Assembly (NCBI GenBank): GCA_964016885.1 | Contig: OZ024741.1 | Coordinates: 340,876,001-340,940,000 of the forward strand | DNA from: Eledone cirrhosa | Lineage: Eukaryota | DNA length: 64,000 nt | Direction of reading: 5' to 3' | Shown: piece by piece, positions 3,621 to 31,571 of the stretch | How the letters are laid out: the number at the start of each line of letters is the position of its first letter | How positions within the stretch are numbered: position 1 is the stretch's first letter | Made by a program: the position numbers and the translations under genes | The notes under the pieces: generated by a model | What the model saw: only the letters and a program-made list of their open reading frames with translations | Told to the model about the DNA's origin: nothing | Database searches by the model: none

Positions 3621-4144
3621 GATAATGACTAGGGCGCCTTTGATCAATAAAAAAATATCTTGCGTTGATCCAGTTCACTAAGTAAACATGCTTTTCCAGT
3701 AGTGTGTGGTGGTTGATCCGAGTTCCTTACAACAGAGTAACGTCTTCCGAAGATCCCAAACAGATAGATGGCGTTGTAAAAGAAGTGGGGAGGGAGTAGA
3801 GAGCATAGAAGAGAAGAAAATAGTAAAAGAATAAAGCAAAGTAAGATAAAAATAAATTAAAACAAACTGAAAGAGAATTGTTGTTGGTGGTGTTTAACCA
3901 CAGGTCGGCAGAGAGCCATCACAACCACAACCACCACCTCCACCATCATCATCACTATTGTCATTGTTTTGCAAGTTTGTTTCTTAAATCTCATTGTATT
4001 TTTAGAATTTATCCTTGAAGTAAGAATGTGTGGGAAATGATGAAAAGAGGTGTGTGTGTGAGAGAGAGTGTGTGTGAATATGTGTTTATACCATGTATAT
4101 GTATGTATGTTATGTATGTGTACATATATATTTATATATATATA

Positions 4145-23205: not shown

Positions 23206-23774
23206 AATATATAAATATATACAATGTGTAGATGTATAATGTATATAATATATACTGAGTAGATATAATAATATAATAATAATAATAATAATGCTTTCTT
23301 TATTAACCACAAGGGTTTACATAAAGTAGACATTAAGGACAGTACAGGACAATACCGGACGGTACAAATGGGCATTTCTGCGTGTAAAAAACAAAACCAG
23401 AGGATGTAACAAAAAACAATAACAATGAAAAATTCCCCAATAGGGGGGAGACTTCCGAGAGACATTCGTGGAGAAAGCCCATTAAAAAGCCACAGTGACC
23501 CTGACCACCAGTTTTCCACCTTTAATTTACAAACACATATTCAGAGTAGGCCCATCTACTCTCTCACCTATCTCTACCCTGATTTTCTTTTTCAAATGTG
23601 AAATTTGAAAAAGGTAATCAGGGCATCACCGAAGAGGTGAGTGCTCGTCTTCAGTTCTTTCAAACGTATCCACCATACTATCTCTTTCGCCATGGCCACC
23701 AGACAGATAAAAATTGCTTGCCCTTCCCGGCTAAAGGAGGAGGGCGGGGCAATCCTCTAATAATAATAATAATA

Positions 23775-23965
23775 ATTGTTTCTACTTTTGGCACAAGGCC
23801 AGCAATTACCCAGTGTATTACTGGTACTTTATTTTATCGACCCCGTAAGGATGAAAGGCAAAGTTAACCTTGGCGGGATTTGAACTCAGATTGGAAAGGG
23901 CCGTAACTCTATGCGTCAAAGCATGGTGTCCGACCCTCTACCGATACTGCCAATCCAGCGCCTCT
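23775..23965 (-). mobile_element. SINE, dominant family
   Basis: Full-length reverse copy with (ATT)n tail; CTCTAATAATAATAATAAT on both flanks. Confidence 0.9.
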
Positions 23966-24528: not shown

Positions 24529-24587
<59 letters not shown>

Positions 24588-24619
24588 AGATCAAAAGATG
24601 GTTAAAGGAGTTCAATATA

Positions 24620-24686
24620 TTTTATTATGCGCATTTCAAAAACAAACATCATCAAACAATAATATTTGTGTTTTCATCAGATAAAA
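24620..24686 (-). ncRNA. Type I hammerhead ribozyme in the sense 3' UTR of the PLE
   Basis: Reverse complement of 29842-29908. Confidence 0.85.
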
Positions 24687-25905
24687 CAGGAGAACATGAT
24701 ATGAAGGCTAAAAAAAACACTTGTTGATAGTGCAGTTTTAAATCAACATATGAAAAGTGGTTTTAGATTGATGTGTGATATTGGGAAAAATATTTTATTT
24801 AGAGAGGGGGGGAGAGAAAAGGATGAAAAGGGAAGGAGATGAGAGGGAGAGATGGGTGATAGAGAGAGAGAGATAGTTTTTATAACAGAGAGGAGATATA
24901 TTTTATATAGAGGGGTTGAAAACCGTTGGAAGATACTGTATAAATTAAAAATTTTGAAAATTAACGAAGGGAGGATATGTGCGAGGAAAAAATATATTAT
25001 ATTTAGGGAGGGGTGGGGGTGGAAAGGATGAAAAAAAGGGGAGGAGATGAGAGTGAAGGTGGAAAGGGAGAGATGGGTGATAGAGAGAAAGAGATAGTTT
25101 TTATAACTGAGAAAAAGATATAATGTTTTAATATAGAGAGGTTGGGAACCGTTGGAAGATAATGTATAAATTAAAGGAATTTGAAAATTAACGAAGGGAA
25201 ATTATGTATGGAGATAGAGAGAAAAAAATAACGAAGGGAGATTATGTATGGAGATAGAGAGAAAAAAATAATAATTGTGGGTGAATATTCAAAAGGAGAA
25301 ATGTAGGAATCTTAAAATTAGCAAAGAGAAAATGTTTATGTATAGGATTTGAGAAAAATTTATATTGAATTCATATGTATTAATAATGAGTTCGTTGATG
25401 GGGAGAAAAAAATAATAATAATAAATTAAGGATGAAATTGAGATTAAAAAGATTTATGATAGAGAGAAAAAATAATAATGATTGCGGATGAATACTCAAA
25501 ATGTCAAAAACAAATGTTATTGTTTTACGAAGAGATATAATGAGGGTGATGAGTAAACGGGTATTATAGAGTGTATAATGCCCTTTAAAGTAAGGTAGAT
25601 GGGTATATTTTAAAGAATATATGAGTATATATTAAAAAAAATATATATAATAATAAATTAAGGATGAAATTGAGATTAAAAAGATTTATGATAGAGGGAA
25701 AAAAAATAATAATGATTGCGGATGAATATTCAAAATGTCAAAAACAAATGTTATTGTTTTACGAGAAGATAGGATGAGGTAAATGAATAAACGAGTACTA
25801 TAGAGTGTATAATGCCCTTTAAAGTAAGGTAGATGGGTATATTTTAAAGAGGTGTATGTATATGTGCCTTTGAGAAAAGATTCTAAATTGATAAAGAATT
25901 GAATA

Positions 25906-28308
25906 TTAACTGTATACTTTGTGAAAAGTTCTATGGAATTTATGAAGGCAGATGGAAAACAAATCCGAGCGTCTATTTATTATGGATTCTAGGTTAGAGA
26001 TAATGGTAAATTTTTCATTTAGGCAGAGATTACAGATTTTAGATAGAGAACTGTTCAAGTACGAGGATGCAGAAGAAATCTTTTTCCAAAAGATGTTATA
26101 TTTAATGTTTTTGTCTTTTAAGGACCATATGAGTTCTGAGAGAGCAGTGTTAGTTCTTTTAAGTTTGTATTTGAAAGATGAATGATGATTATAGAGACGA
26201 GCTTTAAAAGAGGTGGAAGTGGAGCCAAAATAGGTGAAGGAGTTGGTGCTAGTTATAATTTTACATTCATAAATTAAGTTTTTATCGAGGCAATGGTTGT
26301 TGAGAGGACATTTATTTTTAATGCGGCAGTTGCAATTAGAGAGATTATTAATGAGTGATCTAGTGTTATCTATAGAAGGAATTGGATTGGAGAAGTTGTT
26401 TGCGATAGGAATAATAGGTATAATAGTTTCTTGATTTAGAGTTGGATTATGAACATTTAGCGAAGTTGTGTTTGACGTTGCATTTGGGTTTACAGAAGTT
26501 AGCCTAGGGTTTACAATGACGTCAGGAGTACTATTATTGTTATTATGAGATTCAATATTGGAAGGAAGAGATTTAGTATTTAATATTTTGTTGTTGTGTT
26601 TAGAAATGATGTTGGAAATATTGGAGGATGTAGAATACGAAAATTTAATGGTGTGTTTGTTAAATATTTTACTATAGATATGTGAGGGAGGGAAGCATTT
26701 ATTTAAGGCACTAAAAAATAATTTAGGAATATTGTTATTAATAGAGATGGAGAAAGGAGCATTATACCAGATTATGTTTTTGTATCTAGGTCTTTTATTA
26801 AAATTATTGGAATGGTTATGATTAAATATTCTACTGTAAGTTTTCCTAGAATTTGTTTCTTTATTATATTTGATTTTATCTGGATAGCCAGCTTTAGAAA
26901 GTGCGTTATTATAGTAATTGGCGTTAGCATCAAAGATGTTTTTATTAGAAGATATGTTAGATATTCTATTTCCAATATTATTAACTATAGCATTCTTGAT
27001 ATTGGTAGGATGGTTAGATTTAAAGTTAACATAATTAAGATTCTCATTGTTTTTATGGTAAGGGTAATATAGGCCAGTGTCAAGATTAAGAGATACATCC
27101 AAGAAATTAGCTAGTTTGGTACTATTATCAAATTCAATTTTTAGGTTATGTTGGTTAAAGAGATTACGTATATTGTTCTTAATAATATTAAGTTTAACTA
27201 TATTGCAATTTAGGATAGTAAAGAGTCCATCGTCACGATAAATTCCACCGCGAAGTTGAGGAATTTTCCGACTCAAAGAGTTCAAAATGAAGATACCAAT
27301 TAAATCAGTCAATTGGGATGAATCGGATGCTCCCATTGTGATGTCGAAGTTGTTAGAGGTATCGGCTCTGGTCCAATATTCGTTGTTGAACTCTAGGATG
27401 GTTTTACGTGCGGTGAGGATGATGTGAAGTTCATCTGTGGTGATGTCAGAATATTTAAGTGCGAAAGATAGAGCATTATTGAGAAGTGAAGGCGAAATGG
27501 AGGAATAGTAGCTGGCAATATCGAATTGAATAAATTTTAGTTTGTTTTTATTATCCAATTTGTTGAACCAGCCAATCACTTCAGAAGTACCAAACCATAA
27601 ATTTAGGTTTAAAGAAGAGCAATTAGAACTAACCTGTGGGATAATCCTATCCAAGATGGCTTTACTAACAACCCCCAGATCAGATTTAGAGGGGGCGATT
27701 AATCTAACAGGTAGTTCAGTGCGAAAATTGTTTTTGTGATCCTTGAGATTTATCCTCGGAGTTCTTGGGAGGAATGGTTCGGTCTTTTTTTCAATGCCAA
27801 GTTTTGACATAATCTCATAGGCTTCAAGGTTTATGCATTCTAAATTTTCATGGTTGGTTTTACGATACTTTTTCCTAAGTTCCTTTAGGATAAGGTTGTT
27901 ATAATTATCCTTGGAAATACCATATAGGTTATTGGTTTTGTCAGAGTGGACTAAAACATTTTTTGAGGAATTTAGGTTAGAGATTGTGTTCTTGAGATTT
28001 ACAAGGTGCTCTTGTCCTTTGTAAGGGTATCTCTTGAATTTAAGATTTTTTATAATTTTAGTTAATTCTTCCTCGAATTGTGCTAGATTTTTGTTGGAAG
28101 GAGGATTTCGTCTGGAATTAAAAAGATGATCGAGGAAGTTGTGTTCTTTGGTATGAAAGTTCCCTTTTAGGCGCTGGTCATAGAAATAGGCTGTCCATCT
28201 AAGTCTTCTTACGAAGGAGTCAGTTTTTTCAATAAGAAGTTTGGTGAATTCAGATTTACCAGGTATAGGAATGTCTTTAGTAGAATTGGTTATGTTGTAA
28301 TAATCCAT
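25906..28308 (-). CDS. PLE polyprotein: reverse transcriptase, Cys-rich linker and GIY-YIG endonuclease (about 800 aa)
   Basis: Uninterrupted ORF with QFDIASYYSSI, ITMGASDS, IYRDDGL, FLDVSL, SNHP, CNCR..CPL..CL, LIYECKI..YFGST..FKARL.NH and CNLCLNEK; start taken at the ATG of MDYY (upstream ATG at 28335 possible). Confidence 0.93.
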   Translation of the reverse strand: MDYYNITNSTKDIPIPGKSEFTKLLIEKTDSFVRRLRWTAYFYDQRLKGNFHTKEHNFLDHLFNSRRNPPSNKNLAQFEEELTKIIKNLKFKRYPYKGQEHLVNLKNTISNLNSSKNVLVHSDKTNNLYGISKDNYNNLILKELRKKYRKTNHENLECINLEAYEIMSKLGIEKKTEPFLPRTPRINLKDHKNNFRTELPVRLIAPSKSDLGVVSKAILDRIIPQVSSNCSSLNLNLWFGTSEVIGWFNKLDNKNKLKFIQFDIASYYSSISPSLLNNALSFALKYSDITTDELHIILTARKTILEFNNEYWTRADTSNNFDITMGASDSSQLTDLIGIFILNSLSRKIPQLRGGIYRDDGLFTILNCNIVKLNIIKNNIRNLFNQHNLKIEFDNSTKLANFLDVSLNLDTGLYYPYHKNNENLNYVNFKSNHPTNIKNAIVNNIGNRISNISSNKNIFDANANYYNNALSKAGYPDKIKYNKETNSRKTYSRIFNHNHSNNFNKRPRYKNIIWYNAPFSISINNNIPKLFFSALNKCFPPSHIYSKIFNKHTIKFSYSTSSNISNIISKHNNKILNTKSLPSNIESHNNNNSTPDVIVNPRLTSVNPNATSNTTSLNVHNPTLNQETIIPIIPIANNFSNPIPSIDNTRSLINNLSNCNCRIKNKCPLNNHCLDKNLIYECKIITSTNSFTYFGSTSTSFKARLYNHHSSFKYKLKRTNTALSELIWSLKDKNIKYNIFWKKISSASSYLNSSLSKICNLCLNEKFTIISNLESIINRRSDLFSICLHKFHRTFHKVYS

Positions 28309-29841
28309 GTTGTAGAAGAAGAGGTGAAGGACCATCAAAAGGTATCCAATATGAGAGTAAGCGCTCAACCGTTAAGGAGCAAGTAAATGTAGGACTCATA
28401 TGGTCCTTAAAAGACAAAAACATTAAATATAACATCTTTTGGAAAAAGATTTCTTCTGCATCCTCGTACTTGAACAGTTCTCTATCTAAAATCTGTAATC
28501 TCTGCCTAAATGAAAAATTTACCATTATCTCTAACCTAGAATCCATAATAAATAGACGCTCGGATTTGTTTTCCATCTGCCTTCATAAATTCCATAGAAC
28601 TTTTCACAAAGTATACAGTTAATATTCAATTCTTTATCAATTTAGAATCTTTTCTCAAAGGCACATATACATACACCTCTTTAAAATATACCCATCTACC
28701 TTACTTTAAAGGGCATTATACACTCTATAGTACTCGTTTATTCATTTACCTCATCCTATCTTCTCGTAAAACAATAACATTTGTTTTTGACATTTTGAAT
28801 ATTCATCCGCAATCATTATTATTTTTTTTCCCTCTATCATAAATCTTTTTAATCTCAATTTCATCCTTAATTTATTATTATATATATTTTTTTTAATATA
28901 TACTCATATATTCTTTAAAATATACCCATCTACCTTACTTTAAAGGGCATTATACACTCTATAATACCCGTTTACTCATCACCCTCATTATATCTCTTCG
29001 TAAAACAATAACATTTGTTTTTGACATTTTGAGTATTCATCCGCAATCATTATTATTTTTTCTCTCTATCATAAATCTTTTTAATCTCAATTTCATCCTT
29101 AATTTATTATTATTATTTTTTTCTCCCCATCAACGAACTCATTATTAATACATATGAATTCAATATAAATTTTTCTTAAATCCTATACATAAACATTTTC
29201 TCTTTGCTAATTTTAAGATTCCTACATTTCTCCTTTTGAATATTCACCCACAATTATTATTTTTTTCTCTCTATCTCCATACATAATCTCCCTTCGTTAT
29301 TTTTTTCTCTCTATCTCCATACATAATTTCCCTTCGTTAATTTTCAAATTCCTTTAATTTATACATTATCTTCCAACGGTTCCCAACCTCTCTATATTAA
29401 AACATTATATCTTTTTCTCAGTTATAAAAACTATCTCTTTCTCTCTATCACCCATCTCTCCCTTTCCACCTTCACTCTCATCTCCTCCCCTTTTTTTCAT
29501 CCTTTCCACCCCCACCCCTCCCTAAATATAATATATTTTTTCCTCGCACATATCCTCCCTTCGTTAATTTTCAAAATTTTTAATTTATACAGTATCTTCC
29601 AACGGTTTTCAACCCCTCTATATAAAATATATCTCCTCTCTGTTATAAAAACTATCTCTCTCTCTCTATCACCCATCTCTCCCTCTCATCTCCTTCCCTT
29701 TTCATCCTTTTCTCTCCCCCCCTCTCTAAATAAAATATTTTTCCCAATATCACACATCAATCTAAAACCACTTTTCATATGTTGATTTAAAACTGCACTA
29801 TCAACAAGTGTTTTTTTTAGCCTTCATATCATGTTCTCCTG

Positions 29842-29908
29842 TTTTATCTGATGAAAACACAAATATTATTGTTTGATGATGTTTGTTTTTGAAATGCGCA
29901 TAATAAAA
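29842..29908 (+). ncRNA. Type I hammerhead ribozyme in the inverted arm
   Basis: TTTTAT-CTGATGA-long A/U stem II-GAAA-TGCGCA-TA^ATAAAA; palindromic stem III ATGCGCAT. Confidence 0.85.
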
Positions 29909-30055
29909 TATATTGAACTCCTTTAACCATCTTTTGATCTTATATTATGCATACTCCAGTCCCACAAACTGTAGAGTGCTTCTTATCCGATATCTGCATT
30001 GCTTTATTGTACTACAATAAAACTCACCTCCTACATATATATATATATATATATA

Positions 30056-30154: not shown

Positions 30155-30512
30155 TATCCAGGGAGTGTAACTTGGAGTTACTGTAGGTTCACCCGAGTGA
30201 GCACTCGATGTTTAGGTTCACTTCAGTGTCGAGGTGTAGAGCTATACAGAGTGTATTATATAGTTAAATAAGATAACAAGGACGATTGGTTACTCCTTCA
30301 TTACGTTTATTGGTTGGTGATGCGCGTTTCGCCACTGACAACCTCAAGGTTCGATCTGTATCGATCTGAACTGACTCTGTAATCCGCGCCTCGTCAGACC
30401 TCTATCGATAAAGATCGAACCTTGAGCTGGTCAGTGGCGAAACGCGCGTCGCCAACCAATAAACGTAATGAAAGAGTAACCAATCGTCCTTGTTATCTTA
30501 TTTAACTATATA
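30155..30512. mobile_element. Hairpin-plus-tail element, family F; HHR on minus strand 30316-30400
   Basis: Arms 30258-30365 and 30403-30512; about 100-nt tail on the left; GGT-CTGACGA-60 nt-GAAACGCGC(A/G)TC-ACC. Confidence 0.8.
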
Positions 30513-30608: not shown

Positions 30609-31385
30609 ATTAATGTTCAGAGCCATCCTCAACATTCTCGTGTAGCACCCATCCACCATCTGAGTGAGTTTCTTGGTCAGTGTCCAAGTCTCAGACCCAT
30701 ACAGCAACACAGACTCCACTACAGCAATGAAGAGGCGGACTTTCAGGTCTTTACGAAGGTCCGACTTCCACACCGATCTCAAGTTGTGGCACGCCGCCCA
30801 GGCCTTGCTCTTCCTCTCAACCACATCATCTTCCGTATTCCCAATCTTTGCTCCCAAATACAGGAAGCCCTCAACCAATTCTAGCGGCTTCCCGCCTACA
30901 TGGCTTCTCAACATTCTCTACCAGATATTTTGTTTTAGTCTCATTTATTCTCAGCCCCACACTCATCGACACAGTCTCAACCTCCCGCATCAAATACTCT
31001 GCCTCCTTCACTGTATTTGTCACCAAAACTATGTCGTCGGCAAATTCAGCATCCGATACCTTTTTCGCCCTAACTCTCCTGCTCTGAGCCGGTGCTACAG
31101 TAAAGCCAGAGTCCTGGTGTTTCTCCAGTGCAAGGCGCATACAATAGTCCACTACGATGAGGATGAAAAACTCAGAGCTGTATGGGAGCATCCCAAAAGT
31201 CAGCTCAAAAGTGAGACTGAGGTTAGCTGGACATGCTCACCGACATCCAGAGTTGACATTGCACTCAGTGCTCCTTTGGGAGCCCCTACATGGACACACT
31301 AGAAGAGGAAGACCAAGATTAACGTATGTTGATGCCCTAAGGACAGACACTGGTCTGTTGTAGACGCAGGACATGGCAGCGATAA
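30609..31385. mobile_element. RTE copy with 5' inversion and internal deletions
   Basis: 30609-31157 is reversed RTE sequence (about 45115-45677); 31158-31385 is forward (about 45688-45924). Confidence 0.85.
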
Positions 31386-31571
31386 TTGTTTCTACTTTAG
31401 GCACAAGGCCACCAATTACCCAGTGCATTACTGGTACTTTATTTTATCGACCCCGTAAGGATGAAAGACAAAGTCAACCTCGGCGGGCTTTGCCTTTCAT
31501 CCTTACGGGGTCGATAAAATAAAGCACCAGTAATGCACTGGGTAATTGGTGGCCTTGTGCCTAAAGTAGAA
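31385..31571. mobile_element. Inverted pair of SINE 3' halves
   Basis: Minus half 31385-31487, plus half 31488-31571. Confidence 0.85.

Follow-up and report, generated by a model that had tools for sequence, protein, structure and literature searches.

An inverted insertion of a Penelope-like element (PLE) lies in a stretch of 64,000 nucleotides of Eledone cirrhosa DNA (hereafter the window), and we regard it as probable that this Hydra-clade element was inserted into (TA)n by twin target-primed reverse transcription (TPRT) on one RNA, which was itself probably a unit-length circle. That twin priming on one RNA made the insertion is very likely. The more general proposal, that autonomous PLEs move by twin-primed rolling-circle reverse transcription on a hammerhead-made 3.9-kb coding RNA circle, is a possibility that we put forward tentatively.

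Positions prefixed with U refer to a ruler of 3,896 nt, one natural unit taken from locus L021, in which U1 is the leader start, the ATG is at U79 and the hammerhead ribozyme (HHR) cut is predicted at U3762/3763. As summarized in Table 1, the region 24580-30036 is a single insertion with a (TA)n tract on either side; with respect to target-site duplication, both of its ends were found to lie within (TA)n. The long minus arm, with (TA)n outside 24580, is 99.8% identical to the natural unit in L021. The arms are complementary between 24575-26137 and 28391-29953 (2 mismatches per 1,556 nt), meet at an inversion junction with 1 nt of exact microhomology, and neither is contained in the other. The original prediction held that the end of the tail and the start of the ORF leader share an 8-mer, that the first cDNA was primed about 45 nt past the HHR site and that both cDNAs cross this site. 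These observations were all borne out: the plus arm ends in ...CACCTCCTACAT at 30036, followed by (AT)n; the minus copy starts at 28394 with TCCTACAT, directly followed by TTACTTGCTCC; the 3' end of the minus copy (24580) lies 46 nt past the predicted hammerhead cut; and both arms traverse that cut.

Table 1. Features of the inverted insertion, in window coordinates.
Feature	Position	Strand	Remarks
S1-ended long arm: TCCTACAT, leader, ORF, 3' UTR, HHR	24580..28394	-	U3889-U3896, then U1-U3808
S2-ended inverted arm: 3' end of ORF, UTR, HHR, tail	28394..30036	+	about U2253-U3896
78-nt leader, U1-U78	28309..28386	-	follows the tail in tandem copies
Final 8 nt of the tail (TCCTACAT), copied at the 5' end of the long arm	28387..28394	-	
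88-nt tail between the fixed 3' ends S1 (29948) and S2 (30036)	29949..30036	+	
800-aa ORF, ATG at 28308	25906..28308	-	PLE RT (DIASYY, YRDDG) and C-terminal GIY-YIG-type endonuclease
Minimal type I hammerhead motif	29842..29908	+	found by hand; cut predicted after 29902
Second copy of the hammerhead motif	24620..24686	-	on the minus arm
U3633-U3640 (CATATG)	29772..29779	+	hot spot for 5' ends among short copies across the genome; probable transcription start

With RT and GIY-YIG domains recognizable in a single ORF, the element has the sequence features of an EN+ PLE, and the EN+ PLE layout is present: a partial tandem (pLTR), an inverted 5'-truncated copy and a tail on one end. Among its Atlas neighbours (0.95-0.98), GIY-YIG (26-50% of members) and RVT_1 families are represented; a Pfam search of the ORF returned 0 matches at E<=0.1. 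The accessible text of PMC8557442 defines the Hydra clade by DKT, an RWK-like motif, a CxCX5C linker, the lack of CCHH, CxxC/CxH around E and N, and (TA)n targets. The ORF contains DKT, RWT, CNCRIKNKC, CNLC and CLH, lacks CCHH and has a single Cys in the GIY-YIG core. By that definition, its motifs together with the (TA)n target would place it in the Hydra clade.

The putative minimal type I hammerhead sits in the pLTR region and comprises stem I (TTTTAT/ATAAAA), CTGATGA, a long stem II, GAAA and the palindromic TGCGCA of stem III. Its core is kept in most fetched copies (CTGATGA in 323 and GAAATGCGCATA in 320 of 339), and Rfam gave no hammerhead match at gathering or E-value thresholds. The family is large, a 21-mer of the tail having 12,016 exact copies in the genome; a sequence look-up turned up no look-alike. 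Three further features of the window lie near the insertion. An unrelated palindrome at about 30255-30510, imperfect and about 250 nt long, has TA on either side and resembles a MITE or another fold-back element; at about 30660-31300 there are short open frames with, by eye, an FADD-type RT motif on the minus strand, possibly a LINE fragment; and a 111-nt direct repeat (94% identical, 23772-23882 and 31382-31492) flanks the insertion region.

We first consider the ends of the copies. Throughout the family these fall at S1 (U3801-3814, mostly U3805-3808), 46 nt beyond the hammerhead cut, or at S2 (U3896), 88 nt beyond S1, and the tail is the span between the two. One S1 and one S2 end were found in 90 of the 92 inverted insertions for which both ends were classified. 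Because the arms are not nested within one another here or in most long inversions, and because S1 is paired with S2 in these 90 insertions, the arms derive from two separate primings, as had been proposed. Both primings would have occurred on the same RNA, or on RNAs from one donor. Between arms of the same insertion the median difference was 1 base per 150, and between loci it was 7 (81 pairs); in 6 of the 81 pairs the arms were less alike than the between-locus median, and the similarity could partly reflect gene conversion. At one locus (L046) a private deletion junction, found in no other fetched locus, is present on both arms in 8 copies. Two other loci, L037 and L162, belong to two subfamilies and have the same inversion junction, with the leader start joined to U1130 at a near-palindrome, which suggests sequence-driven joining.

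Several loci consist of mini-multimers. L025 and L046 carry HHR-less mini-units of 187 and 205 nt as perfect multimers on both arms, and no other carrier of these units was found among the fetched loci. The HHR core is likewise missing from the mini-units of L142 and L166, the latter restarting at the HHR cut. These four loci and L302, which also lacks the HHR core, consist of internally deleted units that retain S1, the tail, S2 and the leader start, which would narrow the cis-acting region to about U3797-U60. In L131 (4460-4560), a 16-nt unit in which the S1 end is joined to the leader start is repeated about six times, suggestive of RT switching back and forth between the two priming sites. 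At G000:C6:38071211-38085901 units are arrayed head to tail, and five tail-leader junctions recur at intervals of about 3,657 nt; the array is possibly a master donor or a long rolling-circle product, and it could be a source of linear multimer RNA.

It had also been predicted that in the template the tail runs on into the leader. By itself the 8-mer occurs at chance level (4 matches in the window, 4.6 expected). In contrast, a 20-mer spanning the end of the tail and the leader has 46 copies in the genome, compared to 0 for the control, and these include five tandem pairs spaced 3,894-3,936 nt apart. The leader was preceded by the tail in 45 of 50 exact leader copies, all 45 matching the junction exactly, so that the junction search supports a contiguous template over a shared 8-mer with differing upstream sequence. 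The remaining 5 copies, the window locus among them, start 1-9 nt upstream of U1; all 5 are S1-ended, and each has an S2 partner.

We next asked how general is the abutment seen in the window locus. Of 124 leader-bearing arms, taken unselected, 15 start between -6 and +9 nt of the junction, where 2.4 were expected (p=5e-8). This set retains 18 arms whose 3' end was broken or not visible, which were dropped from the S1/S2 comparisons; the counts omit six mini-multimer loci and 13 loci (L132-L144) chosen for junction breaks, and small upstream indels in L130, L136, L140 and L232 were scored as passes. Among classified long arms 90 of 106 read through the junction. Stops up to +14 were similarly frequent in S1 arms (11/65) and S2 arms (5/41; p=0.59). 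A genome-wide search for breaks at the junction gave 22 matches, 3-4 of them small indels and about 18 of them independent arms with a common start and different neighbours, while the control U14-U30 was intact in 100 of the 100 copies listed (of 296). The shared 8-mer thus marks a real, six-fold enriched hot spot, but a minority outcome: the L1-type rule, in which one arm's inner end lies against the outer end of its partner, holds in only those 15 of the 124 long arms. The proposal that the cDNA stops at the second primer consequently stands in part. The pile-up at the junction agrees with it; exact abutment is exceptional, and S2 arms stop there too.

The shape of the template is addressed by arms that pass the junction. 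Junction-crossing S1 arms stopped within U3769-3878, roughly one lap from their own start, in 13 of 54 cases (8 in U3793-3811), compared to 0 of 36 S2 arms. These stop windows were picked after inspection of the first set and were written down before 30 new loci were fetched. This replication covered 30 of 40 planned loci, and 4 were set aside, namely L296 because it was fetched on the wrong side, L301 as broken, L302 as a mini-multimer and L306 because its S1 arm halts about 15 nt beyond the junction. In the new loci the difference was 6/17 vs 0/9 in the wide window (p=0.063) and 2/17 vs 0/9 in the narrow S1 window (p=0.53), so the replication taken by itself is weak; pooled values were 19/71 vs 0/45 (p=4e-5) and 10/71 vs 0/45 (p=0.006), respectively. 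S1 is not simply a pause site, because S2 arms stop there on the first pass (10/44) and not on the second (0/36; p=0.002, junction-targeted loci included). At each of two loci, L141 and L226, both sites are used as stops and one unit is tiled exactly.

Three other templates or causes were considered and set aside. HHR-cut linear RNA is disfavored as the main template: breaks at the HHR cut numbered 170 (small indels accounting for about a quarter of the 100 listed) compared to 149 in a control window, a rough comparison in that anchor and recall differ. With a linear RNA cut within the tail the two arms would share their 5' end, a pattern that suits about 4 loci (L158, L250, L296, L311) and not most. 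Microhomology between S1 and (TA)n could cover the partnerless starts at 3801 (L223, L244), but neither the partnered ones nor the absence of such stops in S2 arms. Taken together, the stop patterns make it fairly probable that the template was effectively circular for many long copies; that it was a covalent RNA circle is a somewhat weaker proposition, which we hold tentatively. The original prediction had left the choice between an uncleaved tandem RNA and a re-ligated circle, and in its support the cut is not a marked hot spot of 5' ends. The breakpoints favor the circle over the linear tandem.

The linear tandem is nevertheless the strongest competitor. Twin priming on a linear read-through RNA, where the downstream unit supplies S1 and the upstream unit S2, covers the junction stops and the raised stop rate just past the junction, and, which counts against a circle, it fits the window locus without strand displacement of about 1.55 kb. 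Two-unit and longer donors are present in the genome, the probable transcription start serves as the 5' end of 2-3 long arms, and the arrangement agrees with the multimeric-mRNA scenario in the accessible text of PMC11167929. However, it gives no cause for S1-arm stops at the upstream S1 site, where the rate is 6.7 per kb at risk compared to 1.4-1.7 in the flanks, and it leaves unaccounted the S2 stops at S1 on the first pass only and the double stops of L141 and L226. Its mirror arrangement expects S2 arms to be blocked at the upstream S1, which was seen in 0 of 45, and a mini-multimer donor was not found among the fetched loci. We consider this reading rather unlikely.

A second 5' end bears on where the template begins. 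About 40% of arms reaching U3638 (4,558 of 11,252) start at U3633-3638, compared to 149 breaks in the control window; thousands of short copies start at U3638 on one or both arms, and many are palindromes of about 430 nt. Among non-palindromic starts an unexplained G precedes U3638 in 14 of 56, and starts one base on have it in 5 of 63 (p=0.013, counted by hand). An extra G fits a capped 5' end by analogy with L1, for which the accessible text of PMC11702581 describes this signature. Transcription thus likely starts near U3638, in the upstream pseudo-LTR. Long arms started there in 0 of 70 cases in the first set and 2-3 of 18 in the new loci (2-3 of 88 in total); our prediction of zero long-arm stops at U3630-3645 failed, with 2 clear and 1 ambiguous among the 18. 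Since 2-3 long arms start at U3638, some long copies derive from linear transcripts, and most long arms appear to have been copied from RNA extending upstream of U3638.

If transcription instead began at the end of the tail, the RNA would be linear, the stops at the junction would mark its 5' ends, and RT would jump from end to end on this RNA, making the template functionally circular without ligation. The motif CTACATT at the end of the tail resembles the initiator consensus. Such a start gives a natural mRNA with a short leader and the same one-lap stops, and is compatible with similar rates of junction stops in S1 and S2 arms and with repeated switching between S1 and the leader start in L131. 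Yet the dominant 5' end is at U3638; the junction stops are scattered over about 20 nt, with an extra G in about 1 of about 21 by eye, unlike U3638; and 45 young junction-crossing copies match the junction exactly. We judge this alternative to be quite improbable.

Earlier accounts of PLE inversions invoke a single cDNA that folds back and primes itself, or a DNA intermediate resolved by the endonuclease (PMC3846280, PMC8557442). Perfect palindromes over CATATG make up 37 of the 100 U3638 starts listed, and L017 is a symmetric S1/S1 palindrome, both of which would suit fold-back. Fold-back of one cDNA cannot make the window locus, however, because neither arm is contained in the other, nor are the arms nested in most long inversions, and the U3638 start recurs beside plain (TA)n and beside unrelated partner ends. 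This explanation is very improbable. Chance or an assembly artefact as the source of the 8-nt match, suggested by the expected frequency of the 8-mer in the window, is negligible in view of the repeated junction and the independent arms with different neighbours described above.

Twin primers on one circular RNA remain our preferred reading because they fit the one-lap, S1-pass, U3638, HHR-cut and mini-multimer patterns. The RNA would begin near U3638 of an upstream pseudo-LTR and exceed unit length; the two minimal hammerheads in the transcript would cleave as a dimer, releasing a monomer whose ends would be ligated to give a circle of 3.9 kb. Both cut target strands would then prime this one RNA at two fixed positions separated by 88 nt. 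RT primed at S2 would reach the S1 primer after 88 nt and either halt or displace it, while RT primed at S1 would travel around the circle to meet the S2 primer at the end of the tail (3,808 nt), then the tail hybrid, and finally its own primer (3,896 nt). Displacement by the S1-primed RT would yield pseudo-LTRs and tandems, and end joining would fuse both cDNAs head to head. Priming near the 5' end of a transcript would account for the abundant short palindromes starting at U3638. At the window locus the S1 arm would have halted 8 nt into the S2 cDNA, and on a monomer circle its 1.64-kb partner arm would require the displacement noted above. We infer promoter, cleavage, ligation, displacement and blocking from the sequence.

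From the breakpoint census, the ideas of twin priming and of a circular template gain precise expectations: priming at U3808 and U3896, transcription starting near U3638, ligation at U3762/3763 and one-lap stops confined to S1 arms. Each can be addressed in RNA, in vitro or in any long-read genome that harbours a young PLE family. If the model is correct, one rule yields tails, pseudo-LTRs, tandems, inverted ends, mini-multimers and a one-lap genomic signature; a protein-coding retrotransposon would replicate via a ribozyme-made RNA circle, linking retrozymes to autonomous partners.

How PLEs make tandem and inverted insertions, and what role the hammerhead has, are described as open in the accessible text of PMC8557442, PMC7761336 and PMC11167929. 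In the accessible parts of these and the other papers cited here, the layout, a tail bounded by two RT start sites, uncleaved RNA as a template and the idea that the template is circular are already in print; among openly accessible main texts we found no paper applying twin priming to PLEs, and none with breakpoint evidence for a PLE circle or a one-lap signature. The EN+ PLEs of PMC8557442 and PMC3846280 resemble the present element, as far as their accessible text goes, in an ORF with RT and, C-terminally, a GIY-YIG-type domain, partial tandems, an inverted 5'-truncated copy, a tail on one end, an HHR, a (TA)n target and DKT and CxCX5C motifs. In contrast, their tails are 30-40 nt rather than 88 nt, and in the present element the 3' UTR, ahead of the leader, contains the HHR and start sites. 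Those texts credit self-priming or EN resolution for inversions and tails, and the word 'twin' is absent from their accessible portions.

Poseidon of Anolis carolinensis, studied in vitro (PMC11167929, accessible text), likewise has two adjacent internal RT start sites bounding the tail, both DNA strands are cut and extended, and cDNA passes the HHR site; there, the sites are not paired with the two strands of one insertion, and inversions are untreated. The same text proposes a linear multimeric mRNA and predicts a dimer. It reports that HHR mutants still insert in vitro, that unprocessed RNA is the main substrate and that no RNA reads end at the cut, results that we count against the circle. 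A circular template for autonomous PLEs has been proposed tentatively, and in the accessible text without breakpoint evidence, in PMC4209133. That proposal and the non-LTR retrozymes (PMC7229834; bioRxiv 10.64898/2026.07.22.740005) share with our model the dimeric minimal HHRs that cut a precursor whose ends are ligated, and reverse transcription of more than one unit, giving tandems. Retrozyme circles and their PLE link are treated in PMC7229834, PMC7761336 and the bioRxiv paper. As described in the accessible text, retrozyme circles are shown only for non-coding units of 170-400 nt, in contrast to a 3.9-kb coding circle with two primers. The element itself is not a non-LTR retrozyme, given a coding unit of 3.9 kb and HHR-less mini-units.

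A parallel to the two primings is drawn from LINE-1 (PMC11702581, accessible text), in which the second target end primes the same RNA, the arms are end-joined, and the first cDNA ends beside the second primer with a 1-10-nt overlap or gap. In contrast to L1, where the first primer lies at poly(A) and the second at variable sites of a linear RNA, both priming sites of the present element are internal and fixed, and abutment is the minority outcome.
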